IMG/VR virus record: IMGVR_UViG_3300006133_000325 | Origin: a virus | Taxonomy: Duplodnaviria; Caudoviricetes | DNA: 64,000 nucleotides | Strand: one strand, 5' to 3' | Shown: positions 29,245 to 50,935 of the stretch, one piece after another | How the letters are laid out: the number at the start of each line of letters is the position of its first letter | Position numbering within the stretch: position 1 is the first letter of the stretch | Notes under the pieces: generated by a model | Told to the model about the DNA's origin: nothing | Database searches by the model: none | The model's input: only the letters and a program-made list of their open reading frames with translations | Position numbers and translations under genes: made by a program

Positions 29245-30033
29245 TTATTTATTGTTGAGCCAATCCTTATATTGGCGCAAAATTTCAGTATATAACTCCT
29301 CATCACTCATACCATCCATATCGCAAACGGCAGTAAATCCTGTATTGTCATTTTTTCTTCCTTTCATATCATCCAAAGAACGTAAATAAGAAAAATTGTC
29401 ATTTCCGATACCAATAAACTGCACAAACATATTGTAATTGGAAAGTTCCTTAATGATTTCATTTGTTTCCGTCTTATCCCAATTATCTCCATCTGTAATA
29501 AAAATGATAAATGCCGGAATGCAACTTGGTTCTACGTCTTTATAGTACTTCACGATGTCTTTTAAAACTGGCGCATAATTTGTCCCGCCCATATTCATAC
29601 GGGATTTCATCATAACCTCCCTTACATAATTCTTATAGTTTTGAATTGTCACAGCTTCCACTCGTTTTTGACTATCTGAAAACAGCCAAGATTCTAATTC
29701 GCCGTTATCATCAAATCGTAAAGAGATTGGAAGCAGCCTGGTAATAGTATTCTGCACAGATCCATCTGCAAACAGCCCGGACATACTACCGGAATAGTCC
29801 ATTGCTAATGCCACTCTTGCAACATGTTTTGACATATCAATTTTTCCTGTTTTAGACATATCAATCAATACTTTATCTAAGTTTTTTGCCGACTTAGACA
29901 TATCAATCGTCCCTACCATTTTTTCAGTTGATTCCTTTTGCGGTATTTCTCTACTTTGTGCTGGAGTACCGGAAATATCCGGATACTCCTCTTTGTTCTT
30001 GCTAAAAAGATTCTTAAATAGTCCCATACTCAA
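29245..30033 (-). CDS. vWA domain protein (Ter-associated)
   Basis: MIDAS DYSGSM, GGTNYAP, FITDG, QFIGIG, DNTGF. Confidence 0.88.
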   Translation of the reverse strand: MSMGLFKNLFSKNKEEYPDISGTPAQSREIPQKESTEKMVGTIDMSKSAKNLDKVLIDMSKTGKIDMSKHVARVALAMDYSGSMSGLFADGSVQNTITRLLPISLRFDDNGELESWLFSDSQKRVEAVTIQNYKNYVREVMMKSRMNMGGTNYAPVLKDIVKYYKDVEPSCIPAFIIFITDGDNWDKTETNEIIKELSNYNMFVQFIGIGNDNFSYLRSLDDMKGRKNDNTGFTAVCDMDGMSDEELYTEILRQYKDWLNNK

Positions 30034-32662
30034 ACTCCTTTTCTTTTATATTATTTCTTTTTACAATCGCTTTTCTAATCAAATCTACTGGAATTACCAA
30101 AAGAGAAAGACCTATAACGATAAGCCATTGAATCAGGTTCAATGAAGTAAGTTTCAATAATTCTCCTAAAAACGTACAAGCAATCATAACTCCAACAAAG
30201 ATTCCAATTGCTATCTCAACAAATAATTTATTTTTTTTCAAACCATGAAATAGATTAAAATGTTCTGTCCGAATATTAAATCCATTAAATACAGCCATGA
30301 AGCAAAGTATCGTAAATCTAGCAGTCAAAAATTCCAAATCACTCGTAAAATATCCGTGTAGAGATGTAAACATCATAAGGAAATACACCCCGATAAAAGT
30401 ACATGCGGCAATTGCGATTCTTCCCTTTGCTCCTCTGATAAATAAGCCAGAGCCTTTTTTAATAGGAACCTCACATATATATTCTTTTTTAGAAGGTTCT
30501 CCGCCAAAGGAAAGAGAGTTTAAAGAATCCATAATAATATTTACGATCAATATTTGAACAGATGCTAAAACAGACATACCAGAAGCAAAAATTGGATACA
30601 AAATACCTAAAATCAATAATGAAATATTGATAGGAAGTTGGAACTCTAAAAACATCATAATGTTGTGCATAAATGTCCTGCCAAGTTCTACTGCCTTTAC
30701 AGTGGAAGCAAAATTATCATCTGTTAAAACAATATCACTTGCTTCTTTTGCAACATCGCTTCCGCTTTGCATACCAAAACCAACATCTGCTCTCTTTAAG
30801 GCAGGTGAATCATTTACTCCATCCCCTGTCATCGCAACCGATTTATCAATTTCCTGTGCCAATGTCACCAAACGCAATTTTGTATTTGGAGAACATCTTG
30901 AGATAACGCGAAGAGAAGGAAGAACCTCTTTTACTTCTTCATCCGTCATTGCTTCAAATTCGTCATTTGTCAATGCAACCTCTCCATCTTTATAAATACC
31001 ACATTCCTTTGCCACAGCTACGGCAGTTTCAATACAATCTCCTGTAATTTCGATTACTTGTATCCCTGCTTTTTGTGCTGTCTTTACTGCTTTTGGCACC
31101 TCTTCTCTTATCGGATCTACCACTCCTATAACCCCTAAAAGCGTCATTTCATGTGGCAGATGATTTTCTATCAATGCTTCATTTTTAACTGCCAGGGCAA
31201 TACACCTCATAGATTTCGAGGTCATTGTTTTAATTGTATCACTTAGATTGCTTTTCATTTCTTTTGTGAATTCAAATACCGTTCCATTCTCCTGCATGTG
31301 TTGCGAACAAAAATCAATAATTCTCTCTGGTGCGCCTTTATAATATGTAATGCCATTTTCTGCGGTAAAGGCAGAGTATTTATTTAAGCTACTAAATACT
31401 TGCTTGTCCTTCATTTTGTTGTTTTTTACAATTTCTGAGTAATTCGACGGATTTACAAGGCTTAATACTGCTCGGTCAATAGAATTACCTCCTATTATGC
31501 TTCCTTCTCTGTCAAAGGTTGCACTATTATTTAGTACTATATTTTTCTGAACAGTATCCCAAAGAGTAGAATTTTTTAACAACTCTTTTCCACTTCCATC
31601 TATCACTGTTTTAGGAGACATCATTCCTGTTGTTAAAGTTCCAGTTTTATCTGTACAAATGATATCAACATAGGCTAATTCTGGAATCTTATTTGGATTT
31701 TTGGCAAGAATATTGAATCTTTCCATAGTTTTTACATTTTGCTTTGTAACCAATTTCACAATCAAAGGAAGCCCTTCCGGAACTGCTGCTACGATAATGG
31801 TTAATGCCACAGAAAAGTTTTGTGCAAATTTTTGTGCCAAGCTAAATACATTATCTGAAAAATAATTCTCAAATCCTACCTTTAAAATTCCCGAAGTCAC
31901 CAATACGATAAATGTTAAAATAGCAGCCGCGGTTCCCCATTTTGATATAAAATCGCCTAAATTATCAAGTGCAATATTTAATGCTGTTTTAGGTGATTCC
32001 AGCGTTTGCATTTTTACCATTGTATCACCATTAATCGTATTCACTCCAACATCTGTTACTACCATCTTCCCTTCGCCTGACATTACTGTTGTACCAGCAA
32101 AGAGACAATTTTCATTTGTATAAGCATCGGTTGATGTCGTTTTCTTATGAATATATTCATCTACTGGCTTTTTCTTACACTCTTTTGTTTCTCCATTGAT
32201 AGCAGCATTATTAACCGAAATTTTTCCTTCTACTATATACCCATCTGCAAAAATTTCATTTCCTAATCCAAGGCATACAATATCTCCTACTACAATATCA
32301 TCTTTATTGATGGTTTCTAATTTCCCATCTCTAATCACATCGCAATACCTTACAGATGTTTTTTCTCTTAACTCAACTGCAGATTTTTGTACTCCAATCC
32401 CTGTTTTTACGGCAATTCCTGTCACGATTCCAAGCACAACCATAATCATAGCTGGCTCTGAAAATTCCATTACTCCAACAAAAGTTAGTCCAAATTGTAA
32501 AACAGCGATAGAAATAAGGATCATTGTAATTTTTTCACTTAATGCTTCCTTTGCAAACTCATACCATTTTTTTAATTTTGGCTCTGGTAGTTTATTGCTG
32601 CCGTATTTCTTTCTGCTTTTTATAACCTCATTTTGAGTTAAACCTTTCATTTTTTCCTCCAT
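30014..32662 (-). CDS. Ca2+-translocating P-type ATPase (PMCA-like)
   Basis: VPEGLPL, DKTGTLT, KGAPE, DP.R, MTGDGVNDSPALK; multiple TM helices. Confidence 0.92.
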   Translation of the reverse strand: MEEKMKGLTQNEVIKSRKKYGSNKLPEPKLKKWYEFAKEALSEKITMILISIAVLQFGLTFVGVMEFSEPAMIMVVLGIVTGIAVKTGIGVQKSAVELREKTSVRYCDVIRDGKLETINKDDIVVGDIVCLGLGNEIFADGYIVEGKISVNNAAINGETKECKKKPVDEYIHKKTTSTDAYTNENCLFAGTTVMSGEGKMVVTDVGVNTINGDTMVKMQTLESPKTALNIALDNLGDFISKWGTAAAILTFIVLVTSGILKVGFENYFSDNVFSLAQKFAQNFSVALTIIVAAVPEGLPLIVKLVTKQNVKTMERFNILAKNPNKIPELAYVDIICTDKTGTLTTGMMSPKTVIDGSGKELLKNSTLWDTVQKNIVLNNSATFDREGSIIGGNSIDRAVLSLVNPSNYSEIVKNNKMKDKQVFSSLNKYSAFTAENGITYYKGAPERIIDFCSQHMQENGTVFEFTKEMKSNLSDTIKTMTSKSMRCIALAVKNEALIENHLPHEMTLLGVIGVVDPIREEVPKAVKTAQKAGIQVIEITGDCIETAVAVAKECGIYKDGEVALTNDEFEAMTDEEVKEVLPSLRVISRCSPNTKLRLVTLAQEIDKSVAMTGDGVNDSPALKRADVGFGMQSGSDVAKEASDIVLTDDNFASTVKAVELGRTFMHNIMMFLEFQLPINISLLILGILYPIFASGMSVLASVQILIVNIIMDSLNSLSFGGEPSKKEYICEVPIKKGSGLFIRGAKGRIAIAACTFIGVYFLMMFTSLHGYFTSDLEFLTARFTILCFMAVFNGFNIRTEHFNLFHGLKKNKLFVEIAIGIFVGVMIACTFLGELLKLTSLNLIQWLIVIGLSLLVIPVDLIRKAIVKRNNIKEKEFEYGTI

Positions 32663-34537: not shown

Positions 34538-35219
34538 TTGTCTCCATATTTACTAATCCTGTTCGCTTCATATCTTTCCAATAACAGTACTCATCACCAT
34601 CCTGAATTACTATATATTTCTTATTGATAAGATATTCTTCAAGAGAGATATTCTCCTTTTTTAAAAAATTACTCAAAATATCTTCATCTACACATCCTGT
34701 ATATGGCTCTTCATAATGCCACCATCCACTTGCTTCCCAATATCCGACTGCAATCTCCCAATCATTTCCTTTTTGTAATAAATATTCTTTTAATTCTTCT
34801 TCAGTCTTTCCATGTATTTGATAATAATCGTTATTTTCATGTATTTTAGAATCTTTATTCGCAATTATACGATTACCCATCGGAAGTTTAATCTTCTTAA
34901 GACCTGGTATGTATTTCAGCGCGAGTGAAACAAGTTCTTTATAAACCTCATCATTGTATTCATGAACCAAAGATGCACAAGCATACAGCCATTTATCTGC
35001 AAATGTTCCTATAGCCCTAAATGGGCTTCTCCCAAACTCCATATCATGAATCCATGGTTTCCAAACACAAGACACCTCTCCTGTATCTGCATCCCTTTCT
35101 AGGTATATTCCATTTAGAATTTCTTCTTTAGTATATTTATCTTCTCGTTTCATAACCGTAAAAGAGTGCATACTACTTGAGTTTGTTTCAAATACACCTC
35201 TTCTAATTTGTGTTTTCAT
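34503..35219 (-). CDS. FETNSSS-motif phage protein
   Basis: IRRGVFETNSSSMHSF. Confidence 0.75.
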   Translation of the reverse strand: MKTQIRRGVFETNSSSMHSFTVMKREDKYTKEEILNGIYLERDADTGEVSCVWKPWIHDMEFGRSPFRAIGTFADKWLYACASLVHEYNDEVYKELVSLALKYIPGLKKIKLPMGNRIIANKDSKIHENNDYYQIHGKTEEELKEYLLQKGNDWEIAVGYWEASGWWHYEEPYTGCVDEDILSNFLKKENISLEEYLINKKYIVIQDGDEYCYWKDMKRTGLVNMETIDHEYPEEDWE

Positions 35220-37413
35220 ATTTTCCCCTTTCCTTATAAAAAAGCCTTCTTAACGTACAAATATCTCTTGGCATGCTACTCAAATCTTCTATATCATGTA
35301 AATTTCTAACCCAAGCATAAAATTCATTTGCTATTGGTGTGGTTAATCCAGAAGTTTTATAAATGTATCCGTTTTTAATTGTCTCATGAGCTACGCTTCT
35401 CATAAATTTCCAGAAATGATAATATGTCAGCTTTAGCTTGACCATATATCCAGAACTGTCTTCAATTACAAAACCTTCAATCTTGTTATTGTTGTATTCG
35501 TAGTCTTCCTGTAAAACATCATAATACCAATCAAAAAAATCTTGCCAATTTGCAATCTCAAACGCTTTTTCTTTGTGTTCTAATCCAAACTGCTCTGCAA
35601 TATGGCACATCTCACCATATTCATATTTAGCAAACTTCATTTGATTGTAAACAATATCTAATAATACCAACTTGTTTTCAGAATATTCGATAATATGCGG
35701 ATCGTTCTTCCTATCAACACATTCAAACACGAATGATACATTATGTTCTTTTATATAATTCTTCATTTTCAGTATATTTTCTTCTGATACTTTCTCATAC
35801 AACATATCTTTAAGCCAGCCAGCAAATTCACTGTCAATTGTAGACTTACTTGCAATAAATAAATCATCTTCATATTCGTTATAGCTGATAATTCCCAGAA
35901 AACCATTCTCTTTCACATATGCTGTTACAGGAAATTGTAGTTTATGCTGCAACATATCAAATTTCGTTTCAGAACGTTCATTGACATTAAAAAATTTTGT
36001 ATATGCTCTTGCTACTACTTTTCCTTTCATTGTGTCAAGATATAGTCCTCTTGCTTTCGTAGTCTGTTCGTCCCATATTTTATTGTAAAATACTTTAGGG
36101 GTAAAATTAAAAGATGAAATATTACCGAACTTCTTTTCTTGAATATACTTATTAGAACGCAATGCAATAATGACATCTGCTATCGTACTGCCTGTTACAG
36201 TTTGCTCTTTTTTGATTTCTGGTGTTTTAAATACCTCATTCTTTACTTCTATTGTATGAATCCCATTTTTATCAATCTGAACACACCTGAGATAACCTCC
36301 AAATTCTACTTGTCCTTCTAAATTGAATACCTTGTCATTTACTTGAATTGGCAATTGTTTCGTATTTCTATGTCCATGAACCTGGTAATAATTTTCTGGC
36401 GTAGTATTCAAATACGTCTCTGCCATTTTCTCAAAATCATTGTAATTGCCTACTCCATGAATCATTTGATCGGTTGCTACAAATGATAAATTGTTAGGAA
36501 CTGTACTGAGTCCAGCATGAGTAACCAAGAAAACTTTATCTTCATATTTATAATAAGCACACTGTCCAAATCTTCTATATAACTGTCTGATATCTTTTTT
36601 ATCAATTCCAGCCTCAATAAGTGCTGGTTTTGTTACTAACTCAAATTCTTTTGATTGGCTGAGACAATCATTAGCGTATAACCATAACCATTTTTCATGG
36701 TTCCCTTCTAACATCAATACATTTCTCTTATCTTTAATCGAAATAAGAAACTTTACAACTTCGGCATTTTCAATTCCTCGATCAATATAATCACCTGTAA
36801 AAATGAAAAACTCATTATCTTTCATTCCACCATTATCTGATAGATATTTCTGCAACACAGTATTGCAGCCATGGATATCTCCAATATGATGAATTTTTTC
36901 ATACTCTGACAAATCAATCATTTTCATCCAAATAGTATCTAATTCATCTGGTTTGATAATCTTTACTCCAGATGGAATCTTTTGCGTAGCAAATCTGGAA
37001 TACATTTTATCTATCACTTCTTCAGGTACTCTCTTTAATGGTACTCTGTTTGCATTTCTCCTTTTTACTTCTTCAATTGGAATATCTGTAAAATCAACAC
37101 AATAAATCCGATATCTATAGGTATCACACATTTGTTTATATCTGTTGATTTCTGATGTCTTGGAATTAGTTGCATCTACTACTGTAAATTCTCCTTTTTT
37201 CATCCTTGTTTCTAACAAGTTGAATAAAACCTTCCATGCAATGCCATCATTACTTTGACTGATTTCTTCCCTACCATCCAGCCGCATAATAGGACTCTGG
37301 CATAATAATCTGATATCATCTACTGATAATGTATAGGATTTTAACCCATTCTTTTCAATCCATGTGGATTTACCACATCCGGCAGAACCTCTTAATAAAA
37401 GTAAAATTCTCAT
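35203..37413 (-). CDS. Trifunctional RNA repair enzyme: polynucleotide kinase + metallophosphatase + Rnl1-like RNA ligase
   Basis: GSAGCGKST/DD.R/DATN; GDIHG, GDYIDRG, GNHE; ARGL, KFFN, KENG, FE, EGFV, KLK. Confidence 0.88.
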   Translation of the reverse strand: MRILLLLRGSAGCGKSTWIEKNGLKSYTLSVDDIRLLCQSPIMRLDGREEISQSNDGIAWKVLFNLLETRMKKGEFTVVDATNSKTSEINRYKQMCDTYRYRIYCVDFTDIPIEEVKRRNANRVPLKRVPEEVIDKMYSRFATQKIPSGVKIIKPDELDTIWMKMIDLSEYEKIHHIGDIHGCNTVLQKYLSDNGGMKDNEFFIFTGDYIDRGIENAEVVKFLISIKDKRNVLMLEGNHEKWLWLYANDCLSQSKEFELVTKPALIEAGIDKKDIRQLYRRFGQCAYYKYEDKVFLVTHAGLSTVPNNLSFVATDQMIHGVGNYNDFEKMAETYLNTTPENYYQVHGHRNTKQLPIQVNDKVFNLEGQVEFGGYLRCVQIDKNGIHTIEVKNEVFKTPEIKKEQTVTGSTIADVIIALRSNKYIQEKKFGNISSFNFTPKVFYNKIWDEQTTKARGLYLDTMKGKVVARAYTKFFNVNERSETKFDMLQHKLQFPVTAYVKENGFLGIISYNEYEDDLFIASKSTIDSEFAGWLKDMLYEKVSEENILKMKNYIKEHNVSFVFECVDRKNDPHIIEYSENKLVLLDIVYNQMKFAKYEYGEMCHIAEQFGLEHKEKAFEIANWQDFFDWYYDVLQEDYEYNNNKIEGFVIEDSSGYMVKLKLTYYHFWKFMRSVAHETIKNGYIYKTSGLTTPIANEFYAWVRNLHDIEDLSSMPRDICTLRRLFYKERGKYENTN

Positions 37414-40448: not shown

Positions 40449-41145
40449 TTATATTCTGTTATCCTTCATTCTCTCCTTTGCTATATCAAACCATTTCTTT
40501 TCTTTTTCTATTCCAATAAAATTTCTTCCTAGCTTCAACGCTGCCACACCTGTTGTTCCTGTTCCCATTGTAAAATCTAAAATTGTATCACCTTCATTTG
40601 TCCAGATGGTTACACATCTTTCCATAAGTTGCAATGGTTTTTGCGTCGGATGCCCCATTCCTTTCTGGACTCCATGGAACAATAGGCGAAATATCATACC
40701 AAACATTTGTAAGCGCTCTACATTCTTGTCCGTTCTTCCTTCCCATTCCTCCTGTTTTCTTTGGAATATTAGAATAGATTTTTTGATATGTAGGAGTTTT
40801 TCCTTTGCAATACCACAAGATATCTTCTCTTGTAGAAACAAAATTCTTTTTCGAGCCACGTCCTTTAATTCTGTCCCATACAATCCAATTTTGCATAATA
40901 AATTTCTCATCCAACAAACATTTTGTATCGGCTACATTAGACCAACCCTGGAACAAAACTAAGTTTCCATTATCCTTTAATAAATTATAACATAGCTGTA
41001 TAGCTATTGGCATATTAAAACTATTATCCCATTCTGTGTAATTGATATTATAGGGTGGATCACAAATAATTGCTTCTACTTTCACTCCTTTTGCTATTAG
41101 TGATTTCATCACTTCAAAGCAATCTCCATTAAATAATTCCTGTAT
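40449..41145 (-). pseudogene. N4/N6 DNA methyltransferase with +1 frameshift in a G run
   Basis: NGDCF, DPPY in one frame; HPTQKP, DFTMGTGTT, GIEK in another; junction AAT GGGG CAT near 40653. Confidence 0.8.
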
Positions 41146-43016: not shown

Positions 43017-43208
43017 TTAATCTGGAATTTCAAATGTAAATCCCATTTCTTCGCTGATTAAAACTGCATTTCCCATTTCAACAACAACCTTTTCGTGTGG
43101 GTCGCAATTCGCATTTACCCAATCAATGAGCGGCTGTACTGCTTTCTTAAATTCTTCCATGTTTGGCATTTCTTTTCTATGTTCAATACACACTCTATCC
43201 ATTCCCAA
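43017..43208 (-). CDS. Hypothetical phage protein
   Basis: ORF in operon. Confidence 0.55.
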   Translation of the reverse strand: MGMDRVCIEHRKEMPNMEEFKKAVQPLIDWVNANCDPHEKVVVEMGNAVLISEEMGFTFEIPD

Positions 43209-43272
43209 ATCCTCCTAACTCTCCAAGCAATAAACATTCTCCAAATTCACAATCACAAAGCGGTTTTTCTCT

Positions 43273-43458
43273 TTAATCCTTTAGCAATCTTTTAGTAAGT
43301 TCCTCATTCAATTTCCTGCTCTCCGATATTTCCTTTTCAAGCTTTTTAATCCGTTCCTCATACTGTTCTCTTTCTTTTTTATCCATGTGTACATATTCTG
43401 TTTTTGTTGAACAATTACAGTTACAAGCTCCACAATTACTCCCATCACAACTAGGCAT
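43273..43458 (-). CDS. Cys-rich peptide with C-terminal coiled coil (candidate radical SAM substrate)
   Basis: MPSCDGSNCGACNCNCST; start overlaps SPASM gene stop; GGAGG RBS. Confidence 0.65.
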   Translation of the reverse strand: MPSCDGSNCGACNCNCSTKTEYVHMDKKEREQYEERIKKLEKEISESRKLNEELTKRLLKD

Positions 43459-44458
43459 TTTTATTCCTCCATTTCTTCAACATATAAAGAATTACCGCTT
43501 TCAAAATATCGCAAGTATAATTCTTATTGATTTCCTTGTTATTCTCTTTGCAGCCGCCACCGCAAATATCGCTTATAGGACAACCCTTACATTTTTCTGG
43601 CAATGAATAGTTATATCCAAGCCGATATTTCTTCTGTTTCTTAAATTCCTCTACAATGCTTTTATCATCAAAAATATTGCAGATTTTTTCTCCATAAACT
43701 GTTGTTTGACAAGGGAAAATATCTCCGTTCACATATATTGCAATCAATTTCTCTCCTGCTGTGCAACCCTCGTAACTTGAATTTATGCTGATATTGGAAA
43801 ATTTCATTTTGTTGTAAATGTCATATCCTTTATTGCAAAGAATATCTATAACCGAAATCATCTTCTCGACAATCAAATCCAATGGCATTTCCCCGCAAAA
43901 GAAATGGTCTAAATAAATCCCCCAGTTCAAATCCCTGTCAGCTATCCATTCCGCCAATTTTTCAATATCCGAAAAGCTGTTCTTATCAATGACGGTAGAA
44001 ATATCAATGTTTCTATTCTTGTTTCCAATCAGTCTCTCTATGTTTTCTTTCACGATTTCAGCAGATGATTTTCCGTTATGGAATGGTTTGGAATAAGAAA
44101 ATCCGTCAAGTGAAACGCCAAAACTGTATCTCGTATCTTTGAAGTATTTCAGCATTTCGTCTGTCAGAATAGTTAAATTTGTAATAACGCTTACATGACC
44201 GTTTCCGTTCGCCTTATCAATAAATTCTTCTGCGTGTGAAATCCATTTATCAAATACAGTTAGCGGCTCTCCACCTGCAAGCCTATAAATAACAGTTTTC
44301 TTTTCTCCGCTCTCAAGCATTTTCAAGAAAACATCATTTATCCTTTGATATGTACCGCTTTTCATATCCTCATTTCCTTGTTTCACATAACAATAAGGAC
44401 ATTTCAGATTGCACCTTGTTGTAGTGAAAATCCAAGGGGAAATATAACTCATTTCCAA
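43451..44458 (-). CDS. Radical SAM/SPASM domain protein
   Basis: CNLKCPYC, GGEP, SLDG, CTAG...GDIFPC, CKGC....CGGGC...C. Confidence 0.9.
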   Translation of the reverse strand: MEMSYISPWIFTTTRCNLKCPYCYVKQGNEDMKSGTYQRINDVFLKMLESGEKKTVIYRLAGGEPLTVFDKWISHAEEFIDKANGNGHVSVITNLTILTDEMLKYFKDTRYSFGVSLDGFSYSKPFHNGKSSAEIVKENIERLIGNKNRNIDISTVIDKNSFSDIEKLAEWIADRDLNWGIYLDHFFCGEMPLDLIVEKMISVIDILCNKGYDIYNKMKFSNISINSSYEGCTAGEKLIAIYVNGDIFPCQTTVYGEKICNIFDDKSIVEEFKKQKKYRLGYNYSLPEKCKGCPISDICGGGCKENNKEINKNYTCDILKAVILYMLKKWRNKNA

Positions 44459-44515
44459 ATTCCTCCAATCTCATATTATTTGCGGACTTCCCATGAAAGA
44501 AAGTCCGCTGTGTGG

Positions 44516-45388: not shown

Positions 45389-47440
45389 TTAAAACTTCAC
45401 TTTGACAACCCTCTCGCTTGCTCCCCTGACCTTTACAACTAGGTCATTCCGCTTTGTTGCCGAAAATCCAACGCCGGATAATTGGTCTGCCACATCTTCA
45501 ACGTGCATTTTGCTTCCAAGTGCTTCAAACACACGCTTATGCTCCGTCAGTTCGTTTTTCAGAAATTCGTTATAAAAGCCATTGGGCATTTCCTCATTGA
45601 TACAGCCTTTCAACATGAATAAGTAATGCCTATGCCCGATTCCGTCCTGCTCATCCCAATAATTCGGGGAATACATGATAACCGATACCGGAACAAACTG
45701 ATTTGTCTTTACGCCCCACACTTCCCTTACGGACATATTAGACGGCAACAGTTCCTTGATTGAGAAATTCTGTCCGTCAAAAGTTACTTCTGCAACTGGC
45801 ACATTCTCATTCTGCCGCAACTCTTTCTGATAATCGAAACGGTAAATGTTTCCGTCACACTCAATCTCCGCCCGAAAACCGTTCTTGCCGCCACGGTTAG
45901 CGAACTGATGAACAAAGAATAGATACTTGCCTTTCTGCATGGTGTTCTTGCTCGCCCATGTGATATTTTCAACAGCAGGAGTATTCTTGTTGGGGTTAGT
46001 TATGTCAATATCAAGTTCTCCCTTTGTCCAGCTTCTCTTATGGCTATACATAATTTCCTCGCCGCTCGGTTCTTTACAATGTGCGTCAAGGTCGTTTCTA
46101 TCCCAATCGCCCATATCGTTCCACTGGATCGAGAAACGCAAAACTCCGTCTACTGCGCCGCCTGCTGACTTCACATTTTCCCGAATATCGCTGTCTGTGA
46201 TGTTTCCGGCATACGCCCAAGAAAAGCCATTATTCCATTTGAACATTGTAGGCGCATCCGCATTTTTCGGTGCAATCAGCGACACCATGTTTGATGAATG
46301 TCTGTTTTCAAGGAATACTTCAATTTCTTTTGCTGTAGGCAGCACATTTTTCACAAAATCTTCTGCCGATACTTCCTCAGCCTTAGAAAACTTCTTCGGG
46401 TTGACTGCAATATCCTTTTCCATACTTGCAAACACATCATCTGCGCCCGATATGCGCCGCTGCGCATCCTTATTTGAGAAAAGAATGTTGTTGATAGAAA
46501 TATCATCAAGCGCGGCGAATCTGCGCTCTAAGGACGGCATATATCCTAATTCCTCAATCTTTTTCTTTGCCTCCTCCAACATCTTCTTTGTAAAGATTGC
46601 CTTTGGACGCTTGTAATTTGCCGGAGCGACAATCTGCTCATATTTCTTAACTGCCGTGTCTAACTCCATTCCCTCGCTGATATTAACAAGCAGTGTTCCG
46701 ATACTGTGATTCCTTATCCTGCCAATAGCGGCTCCTGCGGCAATAGATTTCTCCCATGCGAAGCTTTCCTTTTCCTCTGCCGCTGTCAGTTTGTCGTAGG
46801 CTTTCTTGTACCTCAAAAACTCTGTTAAAACGGCTTTCCATTCCTCACCCTTGTAAAGAGAGTTCTGTGAAATCAACTCCAATACAGTCATAATACTTTC
46901 TTCTGAAATTTCATCCAGTGACCGTTTGAACACATTCCTTGTGTCTCTAAATGTCCCTTTAATGTCGCCTGCGGAACGCCGCTTGCCAAAAACAAACTTG
47001 TCCGGCAATTCCAGATAAAAATGCTCGTAGGTGTTAATCTTTCCGTTTTCAAGCTGCTCATGGTTCTTGTCTGTACCGATTTTCTTCTCTTGGCTGACAT
47101 ACACATCCGTAACCGCATGGGATTCTATGTAGTTTGCCATAGCGTTTGCAACAGTCTGAAATGCCGGGTCATCTATTGCCATATCCCATATAGAGTAGAC
47201 TGTGTTGTTTTTGATAACTACCGCATTTCCGATAGCCTTAATGAAGTGCCTGCAACAGCTACAATCGTATTCCCTGCGTTCTCTATAAATCTCGTTCGTT
47301 CCTGCCGGAAAGCTGTCCAGATACAGATTCCACAGCTCGTCCTTGTCTACCGCAACCTCAAACAAATGTGTTGCGTCCTTTGTTATCTCTGCAAAACGCT
47401 TTTGCAGTGCTTTCTTAAATTCATTAAATTCCATTGACAA
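45389..47440 (-). CDS. Large phage protein with C-terminal YfaP/DUF2135-like domain
   Basis: DCSCCRHF; DLDAH...LDIDI...AVENITW. Confidence 0.7.
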
Positions 47441-48453: not shown

Positions 48454-49332
48454 TTAATCTCCTTCTCCTATATACACTAATTGTTCAATATATTTCCTTC
48501 CTTCTCCTTTGAAAATTGGTATTTCCTTATCAATAATCCACTGGCTTCTCAATACGCCAGATTCTACCTCATTATTTTCATAAGATGTAGTGCATCCTTC
48601 AGGAGATTCAGTAAAGTTTCTATTATCATTTCTCGCAAAATATTTTTCTCTGACTACTCCACTACCATGTTTTTGATACGTAGGAAAACCATTCCAGTTA
48701 ATTTCTTTTTGTTTCATAAGCATATCTTTAATATCATTACATGATTTTTCCTGTAGTTCTTTATGGCTAAAATTAGCTTGTCCAACCACCTGAATACTAT
48801 TTCTGGTAGCATCAAGTTGTCTCCAATAAAAGTAGTTTGCCACTTCTTCTTTTGGAATGTTGAACACTCTGGCATCAAACATAGCTTTTCCAAGAACATT
48901 GAGATAAACTTCGTAAAACTTTGTATGTTCTTTTAATACTTCATTCTGAATATTTTTAAAAAAGAAACGATTAAAAGCCATTGTCGCCATACTTGCGGAA
49001 ACAGAACACATCTTCTGTACTTCATAGTCAAACCATGCCGAACTTTCTAATCTTTTATAATCTATCAATAACAACGATATCTCATCCGATTGTGTATATG
49101 CAAACATACATCCCATAATATTTTCACAAAGATATTTTGATGTCTCTTGCATCGTCTTAATCAAAAGTTCGTCGAATGGTCGATCAAATCCTCTTGTATA
49201 AGTATGAAATGCCTTCCCATCAATCCTAATGACTACAGGACAACGCCTCATCAGTCTTGTTTTAGGAATCGTCTCATAGAACTCCTTCATCCGATTCGAT
49301 AAATCATCCCTTAAAATCTTTTTTTTACTCAT
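48454..49332 (-). CDS. thg1: tRNA(His) guanylyltransferase Thg1-like protein
   Basis: RMK.YE, RIDGKAFH, YTQSDEISL, FDAR, WRQ.DA.RNS. Confidence 0.92.
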   Translation of the reverse strand: MSKKKILRDDLSNRMKEFYETIPKTRLMRRCPVVIRIDGKAFHTYTRGFDRPFDELLIKTMQETSKYLCENIMGCMFAYTQSDEISLLLIDYKRLESSAWFDYEVQKMCSVSASMATMAFNRFFFKNIQNEVLKEHTKFYEVYLNVLGKAMFDARVFNIPKEEVANYFYWRQLDATRNSIQVVGQANFSHKELQEKSCNDIKDMLMKQKEINWNGFPTYQKHGSGVVREKYFARNDNRNFTESPEGCTTSYENNEVESGVLRSQWIIDKEIPIFKGEGRKYIEQLVYIGEGD

Positions 49333-49507: not shown

Positions 49508-50935
49508 TTATGCACTTTCTCTTGTTTCATTATTCATAAACTTATCCAAATCTGCTTTCATATGTAAAAAATTCTGCTTTTGATCGAACGAGTACATATT
49601 GGTTCTTTTAAAGTAATCTACAATCCAATCATCCAAATCGATCTCCTTATCAAAGGAATATGCAACCATGGCAATTAAAGAAGGATGATTTCTCTTATGT
49701 AGCAGCTTTGAAGTATTATCAACATTTAAAGTCAGTACTTCAAAAACCTCTTCGTATTGCTCTAAATCATCTTTAGTTACGCCTTTGTCTACAACTTCCT
49801 GAATAAACTCTAATTCGTTGATATCTTCTGTATCTTCCTTTTTGATATGAAAAAACTCATGCAAAAGCTCCTCTAATAAAGCCAGCTTCTGAGAAACAAC
49901 AGATTTATCTTTGGTCGAACGGCTTCCGTTTATTTCCAAAAACTTCTTTCCGTTTTCTGTGCCAAATAATTTACCATTTTTAAAGGCATATAAAAATTCT
50001 AAGAATCTCTCCTCCGCCAATTCAAGTGCGGTAAATTTATCATAGACAGTAAACCAAATAAAAGAATCTTTGCTTGTAAAAAGTTTCTGCAATTCTTCAT
50101 CTTCGCCTACAATTTTTTCAAGTTTAACCAAATTTTGTTCTAATTTATCAAATTCTTTTTTAGAGGAATTTTTATTTAAAAAAGCCCCCATTTTTTTGCT
50201 TTGTTTATTCCACTTATCAAAGTGAAACATACACATTACAGATTCTATGATGATTCTCTCTATTGTTCCATTATTCCGTTCCTTTGCACTATATGTTCCG
50301 CAATCCTTAAAAAAGCGATTATGGAGAGAAATTCTTTTCACTTCCTTTGCCATATTATCCATATATGTCACGGCACTTTGAGACATGTTCATAGATTTTT
50401 GCTTATTATATCTTCTGATATGGTATCCAATTTCTTCATCGGTACAATCTAAGTGTTTGACAATATCAATTTTGAAATTATCAAATTTCTCTTTCAATTC
50501 AGGTGGCAAATCTGAATATCCCTTTCCACGCAAATCATACTCTACATTTTCATATTTGTATTCCCCATATTTATCCTTAGTAATATTTCCGTCCGAATCT
50601 CTTATAGTTTTTTGATATACAATAATTGGAAATTCGATATTACTTCCAACTTTAAAAACTCCATTCTTATATTCGTTTAATGTAGATACTCTTTGCACTC
50701 CATCAATTAGCCACAATACAACGCCGCCATCCCGAAGCTGCTCACATAATTTAATCGAATCAATATCTTCACCTTTAATTACACTGGCAATCAAACCATC
50801 CTTATCTGTTTTTGTCCACTGATCTGGTTTTCTTTGTAAAGGATGATCTTTTCTCAGTTCACCTCTGTCAAACATTTTCTGAATTGTATCATTCATATAA
50901 GCATCTTTTATCCGCTTATCCCTTACTAAACACAT
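49508..50935 (-). CDS. DUF262 (ParB/Srx, GmrS-like) domain protein
   Basis: HPLQR...W, LI.S, LIDGVQR, RRYN. Confidence 0.75.
   Translation of the reverse strand: MCLVRDKRIKDAYMNDTIQKMFDRGELRKDHPLQRKPDQWTKTDKDGLIASVIKGEDIDSIKLCEQLRDGGVVLWLIDGVQRVSTLNEYKNGVFKVGSNIEFPIIVYQKTIRDSDGNITKDKYGEYKYENVEYDLRGKGYSDLPPELKEKFDNFKIDIVKHLDCTDEEIGYHIRRYNKQKSMNMSQSAVTYMDNMAKEVKRISLHNRFFKDCGTYSAKERNNGTIERIIIESVMCMFHFDKWNKQSKKMGAFLNKNSSKKEFDKLEQNLVKLEKIVGEDEELQKLFTSKDSFIWFTVYDKFTALELAEERFLEFLYAFKNGKLFGTENGKKFLEINGSRSTKDKSVVSQKLALLEELLHEFFHIKKEDTEDINELEFIQEVVDKGVTKDDLEQYEEVFEVLTLNVDNTSKLLHKRNHPSLIAMVAYSFDKEIDLDDWIVDYFKRTNMYSFDQKQNFLHMKADLDKFMNNETRESA

Follow-up and report, generated by a model that had tools for sequence, protein, structure and literature searches.

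A two-gene cassette in a phage genome

The window analysed here is the whole stretch of 64,000 nucleotides of the IMG/VR record IMGVR_UViG_3300006133_000325 (Duplodnaviria; Caudoviricetes), which belongs to a large phage of the Firmicutes-infecting type and carries nearly all of its genes on one strand. Its minus strand encodes a radical S-adenosylmethionine (SAM) enzyme with a SPASM domain and, overlapping the end of this gene by 8 nt, a small Cys-rich protein whose first 12 residues form an invariant motif, hereafter referred to as the tag. Both genes had been placed here, with their overlap, in an initial annotation made from the DNA letters, and they are indeed found at those positions. 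The features of the cassette are the following:

44461-44466, minus strand: ribosome-binding site GGAGGA of the enzyme gene, read directly from the sequence, 8 nt before the ATG at 44452
43451-44458, minus strand: radical SAM/SPASM enzyme gene, a 335-aa open reading frame (ORF) with a TTG start at 44458
Enzyme residues 16-23, minus strand: radical SAM cluster motif C16-x3-C20-x2-C23, invariant in the alignment
Enzyme residues 232, 250, 290, 293, 299, 303 and 316, minus strand: SPASM cysteines, invariant in the alignment
43465-43470, minus strand: ribosome-binding site GGAGGA of the small gene, within the last codons of the enzyme gene and 6 nt before the small-gene ATG
43273-43458, minus strand: gene for the 61-aa tagged protein (ORF), with Cys at positions 4, 9, 12, 14 and 16
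43423-43458, minus strand: N-terminal tag MPSCDGSNCGAC, residues 1-12, invariant by conservation and presumed site of recognition and modification
43411-43422, minus strand: variable (xC)n tract, NCNC here, which varies in length and composition and is absent from some homologues
43279-43380, minus strand: helix predicted by AlphaFold (AF2), residues 27-60, the variable body of the protein

The TTG at 44458 listed as the start of the enzyme gene is probably wrong. The ATG at 44452, which would give a protein of 333 aa (MSYISPW...), has a better claim to be the true start, because this codon is preceded by GGAGGA 8 nt upstream and the homologues start with MSYISPW and have a length of 333 aa. 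The ATG of the small gene lies inside the 8-nt overlap ATGCCTAG (43451-43458) with the enzyme stop codon, an arrangement indicating that the two genes are translationally coupled, and a GGAGG-type site is found 6-9 nt before the tagged ATG in all 18 distinct DNA versions of the cassette. A scan for promoters and terminators gave no signal above shuffled expectation.

Pairing of the enzyme with the tagged protein

The association between both genes extends far beyond the window, to dozens of uncultured phages. In each of the 29 loci covered by the pairing count, which represent 26 contigs and 18 distinct DNA versions, the gene of an enzyme homologue stops immediately before the tagged gene, and the small gene is kept across these 26 contigs beside enzyme orthologues of 42-98% identity. 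Starting from the enzyme, the gene downstream of every readable homologue with at least 42% identity begins with MPSCD (for example in loci L002, L003, L006, L011 and L008), and a degenerate DNA pattern designed for the 12-mer retrieved 5 viral and 11 metagenome contigs. The searches of GTDB representative genomes and the alignment-driven viral scan, for which the patterns were too general, yielded only distant, generic radical SAM genes among the matches listed. These provided 129 control loci (L017-L145), and an ORF-initial M[PT]SC Cys-rich ORF was present in none of the 129. The conservation of the peptide beside enzyme orthologues, whose absence the initial annotation had named beforehand as grounds for rejecting the system, is thus borne out by 26 contigs with the tagged gene against none of the control loci.

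When the same-strand ORFs of 15 loci were clustered, the enzyme and the small protein were the only genes shared, and no conserved third gene, protease, exporter or discrete RiPP recognition element (RRE) protein was found across them (RiPP, a peptide synthesized on ribosomes and modified after translation). The initial annotation had also pointed out that no transporter or protease lies nearby, which holds both within the window and in these 15 loci. The enzyme and the tagged protein are an obligate, translationally coupled pair.

Two of the loci show particular arrangements. In L008, an extra untagged gene for a 127-aa coiled-coil protein (L008:4001-4384, plus strand) lies between the enzyme and the tagged gene, and the tag there is the divergent form MPSCDWTEYEDAC; this extra gene may contribute the other helix of a coiled coil that is heteromeric. 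In L005, a viral contig of 332 kb, the enzyme gene (L005:3926-4681, plus strand) is seemingly truncated at its N-terminus (251 aa, with a match from residue 107), and the tagged gene next to it carries the insertion variant MPSCDGSGSNCSSNCSAC. The cassette may be decaying in this virus.

Conservation of the tag

The tag is by far the best conserved part of the small protein. It is identical to that of the window at 12 of 12 positions in 11 of the 13 loci compared, and over these same loci identity drops to 44-60% in the enzyme and to 9-27% in what remains of the small protein. The codons that encode it vary freely. Synonymous variation is observed at 11 of the 12 tag codons, with four codons used for Pro and all four for Gly, while Ser3 is encoded by AGT, AGC or TCC and Ser7 by AGT, TCA, TCT or TCC, so that both Ser codon families are represented. 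As these changes leave the residues fixed, selection acts on the peptide, rather than on the RNA or on the gene overlap. A chance ORF, considered as an explanation for the small gene, was rejected, since both the conservation and the codon evidence speak against it.

A profile of the first 30 residues was compared with 1.84 billion representative proteins, and 39 clusters were recovered at E<=1e-3, all of them from this protein search and roughly 30 of them new tag clusters that lie outside the pairing count given above. The match begins at residue 1 in 37 of the 39 clusters, in proteins of 51-173 aa, and only 0-15 in-frame codons precede the tagged ATG. For these two reasons, the tagged proteins cannot have a leader. 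The variants found within the tag are MTSCDG, MPSCNG (a D5N change, in P0197), CSAC or CSVC in place of CGAC, and S7A, in addition to the insertion form MPSCDGSGSNCSSNCSAC and the divergent form MPSCDWTEYEDAC, each found once. Judging from these variants, the essential set of tag residues is P2, S3, C4, D/N5, N8, C9 and C12. Since several members (P0181, P0191, P0193 and P0174) have no Cys after C12, the (xC)n tract that follows the tag is optional.

The body of the small protein

In the window, the small protein consists of MPSCDGSNCGAC, NCNC, the stretch STKTEYVHMD and then the helix. [quoted passage not shown] The helix gives weak matches to coiled-coil Pfam models, and a heptad pattern can be read from its sequence (I37, L40, I44, S47, N51, L54 and L58), which suggests that it is probably a coiled coil. 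An Asn at the heptad 'a' position is typical of parallel dimeric zippers, and this is the basis for proposing a dimer. In the ESM Atlas, matches to the small protein score 0.81, which is at noise level.

The helix had originally been taken for a follower. A role of this kind in substrate recognition does not agree with the data, as the helix is the least conserved part of the protein (9-27% identity) and belongs to bodies that range from 52 to 180 aa. These bodies are helical, many have basic tails, and a few have extra C-terminal regions. Bodies that reach 173-180 aa, some of them with extra domains or basic tails, suggest that they have functions of their own.

It had also been noticed that the reading frame of the small gene runs on past its TAA as REKPLCDCEFGEC, which is true of the window sequence. 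The idea derived from it, that the peptide was once longer, finds no support in the homologues: the continuation exists only in the near-identical locus L001, distant orthologues end elsewhere, and none of them reads through. This stretch sits in a 64-nt spacer that bears the ribosome-binding site of the next gene.

The enzyme and its family

The enzyme matches the Pfam model Radical_SAM (PF04055) at 1.8e-19, with 71 bits (cutoff 29.5), as well as the NCBIfam model of the SPASM domain, TIGR04085, with 47.6 bits (cutoff 27), which places it in the radical SAM superfamily and in the SPASM subfamily; the Pfam SPASM model (PF13186) stays slightly under its cutoff (19.8 versus 21.5). It also matches PHROG 1802, annotated as 'radical SAM domain-containing protein', at 1.8e-34. 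Within NCBIfam, the highest scores go to the models of PapB, a nif11-type maturase, the anaerobic sulfatase-maturating enzyme (anSME), QhpD, DynA and SCIFF, of which PapB, QhpD and SCIFF stand for maturases that form thioethers, and all of them remain far under their cutoffs. The PapB model (NF047865) aligns over its full length (positions 8-326 of 330) with 96.4 bits against a cutoff of 340, and the scores are 78 versus 349 for anSME (TIGR03942), 71 versus 453 for QhpD (TIGR03906) and 59.6 versus 425 for the SCIFF maturase (TIGR03974). Because the scores fall so far below the cutoffs of all the best NCBIfam models, the enzyme belongs to a family apart among the peptide-modifying SPASM enzymes.

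In metagenomes, 168 homologues of the enzyme were found. Among GenBank phages there is no relative with more than 25% identity, and therefore no cultured phage carries this enzyme family. PADLOC reported only a generic similarity to radical SAM proteins of the viperin type and assigned the enzyme to no defence system. A sister clade (P0097-P0120) groups compact SPASM enzymes of about 300 aa that share 28-34% identity with the enzyme and have the N-terminal signature ISPWIHTT..CNLKCHYCYV; scans of viral contigs for this clade found nothing.

A total of 10 Cys residues are invariant in the 57 homologues aligned, namely C16, C20 and C23 of the radical SAM motif and exactly seven in the SPASM region, as is the GGEP motif at residues 62-65, with the GGE that serves in SAM binding. 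The spacing of the SPASM cysteines is C232-x12-G-x4-C250, C290-x2-C293-x5-C299-x3-C303 and C316, and one additional cysteine, C260, is found in only 39 of the 57. The AlphaFold model of the enzyme is confident (pLDDT 94.1, predicted template modelling score 0.92) and includes a confidently modelled partial TIM barrel, in which strand beta-1 begins at residue 5 and the radical SAM motif at residue 16. As beta-1 starts this early, the protein has no room for an RRE, in agreement with the initial annotation, which had seen none; Pfam and PHROG scans found no PqqD-like protein among the window genes either. The enzyme thus lacks what defines a canonical RiPP maturase, a fused or discrete RRE that binds a leader.

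The structural neighbours retrieved with Foldseek from the PDB (E about 1e-15, template modelling (TM) scores of 0.72-0.76) are ChlB, CteB and anSME, followed by SuiB, SkfB and TigE, all of which modify peptides or proteins. By sequence, the nearest solved proteins are CteB (1.2e-12) and anSME (1.4e-8), and six of the SPASM cysteines align with those of CteB. The seven-Cys pattern would leave auxiliary cluster I with three protein Cys ligands and one open iron, as in CteB and CrpC. This pattern and its open site have been tied to the binding and activation of a substrate Cys (PMC13692751, the CrpC paper; PMC9389541, a review of radical SAM RiPPs (RaS-RiPPs)).

A natural fusion of tag and enzyme

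The nearest outgroup of the enzyme, P0096 (L014:3001-4050, plus strand; 35% identity), physically joins the tag and the enzyme in a single protein. Its N-terminus begins MPSCHACNPYECGGPCG and comprises a Cys-rich tag of the MPSC type, a charged linker of about 28 residues and then ISPWIQTT..CNMRCPYC, with a stop codon directly before the ATG and GGAGGA 7 nt upstream. It has M1, P2, S3, C4, N8 and C12 in common with the canonical tag. No separate tagged gene exists at the L014 locus, where P0096 is flanked by genes for a methyltransferase and a CapD-like epimerase, and no relative of this cis-fused form was found in a search of 5.8 billion proteins. P0096 can be read in two ways, either as a self-modifying enzyme or as an enzyme in which the tag is a working part. 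Borosin methyltransferases, which carry their own core, offer a parallel for the former.

Proposed mechanism

On balance, the data lean towards a self-contained cassette in which an RRE-less radical SAM/SPASM enzyme is accompanied by a small protein that bears its substrate tag, (M)PSCDGSNCGAC, as residues 1-12. The enzyme would covalently modify this tag, with thioether cross-links as the most likely outcome, and the tagged coiled-coil protein would be intracellular, a proposal that is considered somewhat more likely than not; the specific thioether chemistry is graded somewhat lower than the overall reading. The invariant 12-mer itself is presumed to be the element recognized by the enzyme, because the helix is the least conserved part of the protein.

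According to this proposal, the two genes, which are translated as a coupled pair, yield an enzyme that would take up the tag, at the free N-terminus, straight into its barrel, much as anSME handles a short motif, requiring neither a leader nor an RRE. One Cys of the tag may then ligate the open iron of auxiliary cluster I, as the seven invariant SPASM Cys residues suggest. Reductive cleavage of SAM would generate a 5'-deoxyadenosyl radical able to abstract a hydrogen from a neighbouring residue, with which the Cys sulfur would form the thioether. Among the candidate partners, Asp/Asn5 and Asn8 are the best conserved, together with Cys4, Cys9 and Cys12. They could be paired as [D/N]5-x3-C9 and N8-x3-C12, with the acceptor upstream as in the products of NxxcB, or as C4 with D5 or N8, as in those of PapB. 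The product would be a small cross-linked cap at the N-terminus of a coiled-coil protein that is helical and probably dimeric, and the capped protein is expected to stay inside the infected cell, because the cassette includes no protease or exporter. Since the body is free to vary, with lengths of 52-180 aa and in many cases a basic tail, the biological role may reside in the cap plus oligomerization or in the lineage-specific body.

Several observations weigh against this proposal. The C-x4-C-x2-C spacing of the three essential cysteines resembles a set of metal or iron-sulfur (Fe-S) ligands. In the known thioether maturases, the donor Cys is mostly N-terminal to the acceptor, and in the phage protein the residues after Cys12 are unconserved. 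The enzyme scores far under the cutoff of every characterized maturase family, so that the type of reaction is assigned by analogy only. Finally, the fused form P0096 is a singleton and, were its tag a substrate, would modify itself in a single turnover; an accessory module fits it at least as well.

Alternative explanations

The most serious alternative, although an unlikely one, is that the tag is a metal-binding, Fe-S-binding or docking module and the small protein an accessory subunit (for instance, for electron transfer, cluster delivery, oligomerization or regulation) of an enzyme that has some other true substrate, such as a nucleotide or nucleic acid, a sugar or a different protein. 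The cysteine spacing just mentioned, followed by further CxC repeats, has a metallothionein-like or cluster-like appearance, and the enzyme carries no RRE; for many SPASM enzymes of phages, moreover, no peptide partner is known. P0096 can also be accommodated here, with the tag fused to the enzyme, no tagged protein nearby, and a methyltransferase and a CapD-like epimerase as neighbours. Nevertheless, an accessory subunit should keep its interface, and beyond residue 12 there is only 9-27% identity over a threefold range of lengths. Moreover, no further gene is kept with the pair that could indicate another pathway, and the enzymes nearest by fold, like those behind the best-scoring family models, modify peptides or proteins.

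Less probable still is a modification of the tag that involves no thioether, such as the conversion of Cys or Ser into formylglycine carried out by anSME, an epimerization or another change in a single residue. This idea draws on the position of anSME among the best sequence and fold matches, on its lack of an RRE, its similar size (370 aa versus 333-335 aa) and its action on a short protein motif, and on the invariance of Ser3-Cys4 in the tag. However, the substrate motif of anSME, C/S-x-P/A-x-R, is absent from the tag PSCDGSNCGAC, and the three invariant Cys and the D/N residues suit cross-linking better. In anSME both auxiliary clusters are fully ligated (PDB 4K36-4K39), unlike in the present family, which keeps only seven SPASM Cys. 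Cyclophane chemistry was rejected as a candidate: the invariant 12-mer contains no aromatic residue, as three-residue cyclophane (triceptide) substrates do.

A classical RiPP, in which a host protease would separate the cross-linked N-terminal core from the helical follower and so set free a small bioactive peptide of about 12-20 residues, is the least credible of these possibilities and seems highly improbable. Its core would be invariant and rich in Cys, like those of SCIFF peptides or ranthipeptides, and follower peptides occur in other classes of RiPP, with reviews and the darobactin paper (PMC9055067) as sources. The initial annotation had likened the protein to the substrates of ranthipeptide or sactipeptide systems, which are defined by a thioether from the Cys sulfur to C-beta or C-gamma in the former and to C-alpha in the latter, and a thioether in the tag might be of either type. 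Recognition followers, however, are conserved, and the helical body is not; a conserved protease or exporter occurs in none of the 15 loci, and bodies of up to 173-180 aa, some with extra domains or basic tails, point to functions of the body itself. Recognition through a leader or follower, a core and its release are the marks of a RiPP precursor, and here the motif begins at residue 1, the follower is unconserved and the cassette has no protease. The product thus looks more like a tagged protein than a classical RiPP.

Genomic context

The cassette lies among small accessory genes, between an RNA-repair set (a polynucleotide kinase-phosphatase-ligase and Thg1) and a DNA methylase. The repair set comprises a 736-aa fusion of kinase, phosphoesterase and T4 RNA ligase 1 domains (35203-37413, minus strand) and a Thg1-like protein (48454-49332, minus strand), as confirmed by Pfam. 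In other phages the neighbours of the cassette differ, and in a metagenome-assembled genome of Clostridia it is located between host-type genes; for these reasons, the cassette behaves as a mobile two-gene module. The N6/N4 DNA methylase of the window (40449-41112, minus strand) is divided between two ORFs that overlap and lie in different frames, one of 172 aa covering profile positions 1-147 and another of 153 aa covering positions 118-221; a frameshift, programmed slippage or an error in sequencing could account for this.

Other genes of the window include that of a 683-aa protein of PHROG 1735 (45389-47440, minus strand), which has no Pfam domain, shares 65% identity with its counterpart in Bacillus phage JBP901 and is found in 557 GenBank phage records, from phages of Bacillus, Salmonella, Klebsiella and Caulobacter. 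Unusual for a phage is the auxiliary gene at 30014-32662 (minus strand), whose 882-aa product is a P-type cation-transporting ATPase with E1-E2_ATPase, Cation_ATPase_N/C and HAD domains. A 475-aa protein (49508-50935, minus strand) with weak similarity to GmrSD_N (DUF262) and a PADLOC similarity to NsnA (1.2e-10) represents a nuclease-like gene of the defence type in a phage.

Relation to known systems

CteB, the radical SAM/SPASM maturase that introduces thioethers into the SCIFF peptide CteA (PDB 5WGG/5WHY), is the best PDB match of the enzyme by sequence (1.2e-12; TM 0.75), has the seven-Cys pattern, with six aligned SPASM cysteines, and acts on a substrate that is also rich in Cys. Unlike the phage enzyme, CteB has an N-terminal RRE, and its substrate consists of a leader and a C-terminal core. 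SCIFF systems are, in addition, bacterial, whereas the enzyme described here is phage-borne and reaches only 59.6 of the 425 bits set for the SCIFF model.

PapB, which forms the Cys-Asp beta-thioethers of the ranthipeptide freyrasin on PapA, corresponds to the best NCBIfam model, and the tag has a Cys next to an Asp that might act as a donor-acceptor pair. This maturase accepts Asp or Glu, with 0-6 residues between the Cys and the acceptor, and it needs a leader, presumed to be bound by its RRE (PMC9413430); the core of PapA is C-terminal and contains repeated CX3D motifs, in contrast to the tag. NxxcB, from a streptococcal RaS-RiPP system, links a Cys of NxxcA to an upstream Asn through a beta-thioether and accepts Asn or Asp as the acceptor (PMC9389541). 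An acceptor N-terminal to the Cys would fit [D/N]5-x3-C9, N8-x3-C12 and the D5N variant of P0197. The spacing in the tag is nevertheless x3 instead of x2, and NxxcA has a leader; this comparison is one of descriptions, not of sequences.

QhpD/QhpC and CrpC/CrpA, which generate thioethers in lasting proteins, share with the phage pair a substrate that keeps its body and a seven-Cys SPASM enzyme, in which the open site of auxiliary cluster I has been proposed to play a role (PMC13692751). The QhpD model gives 71 bits with the phage enzyme. CrpC differs in its predicted RRE (PMC13692751) and in a substrate whose N-terminal region, of about 47 residues, resembles a leader and whose Cys repeats are C-terminal; in the phage protein, the site modified by an RRE-less enzyme would be the extreme N-terminus.

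As for anSME (PDB 4K36-4K39), it resembles the phage enzyme in the absence of an RRE, size, fold (TM 0.73) and direct action on a short protein motif, and it departs from it in that its motif C/S-x-P/A-x-R is not in the tag, its model is matched with 78 of the 349 bits required, and it oxidizes its target but does not cross-link it. ChlB, a multiple cyclophane synthase (PDB 9GM3), is the top Foldseek match (E 1.4e-15) and is similarly compact (about 372 aa), but it makes aromatic C-C cyclophanes and the tag has no aromatic residue. Literature searches found no paper on this enzyme-tag pair, and PMC7159879 deals with other radical SAM-peptide systems (FxSxx peptides in vWA-MoxR conflict systems). 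Among published systems, those that install thioethers in proteins, QhpD/QhpC and CrpC/CrpA (PMC13692751), come nearest, together with the SCIFF, PapB and NxxcB RiPPs. The features that appear to distinguish the phage pair are its leaderless N-terminal recognition, the absence of an RRE, the retention of the protein body and its viral home.

Implications for phage biology and for SPASM enzymes

Radical SAM peptide maturases are thought to require a leader peptide and, usually, an RRE. In the phage cassette, what is conserved is instead the extreme N-terminus of a viral protein that retains its body. As a more speculative extension of the mechanism proposed above, and one that is put forward only tentatively, phages may possess a leaderless tagging system in which a 12-residue tag is cyclized by an RRE-less enzyme to yield a rigid cap, protease-resistant or metal-binding, on dimeric coiled-coil proteins that act in the infected cell, for instance in host takeover or counter-defence, and the wider clade of enzymes with the 'ISPW' signature might read N-terminal tags instead of leaders. 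If the modification of the tag is true, the cassette would provide a minimal, leader-free tag of 12 residues for both recognition and cross-linking, of interest to enzymologists and to peptide and protein engineers, and it would represent the first function for one of the many orphan SPASM enzymes of phages.

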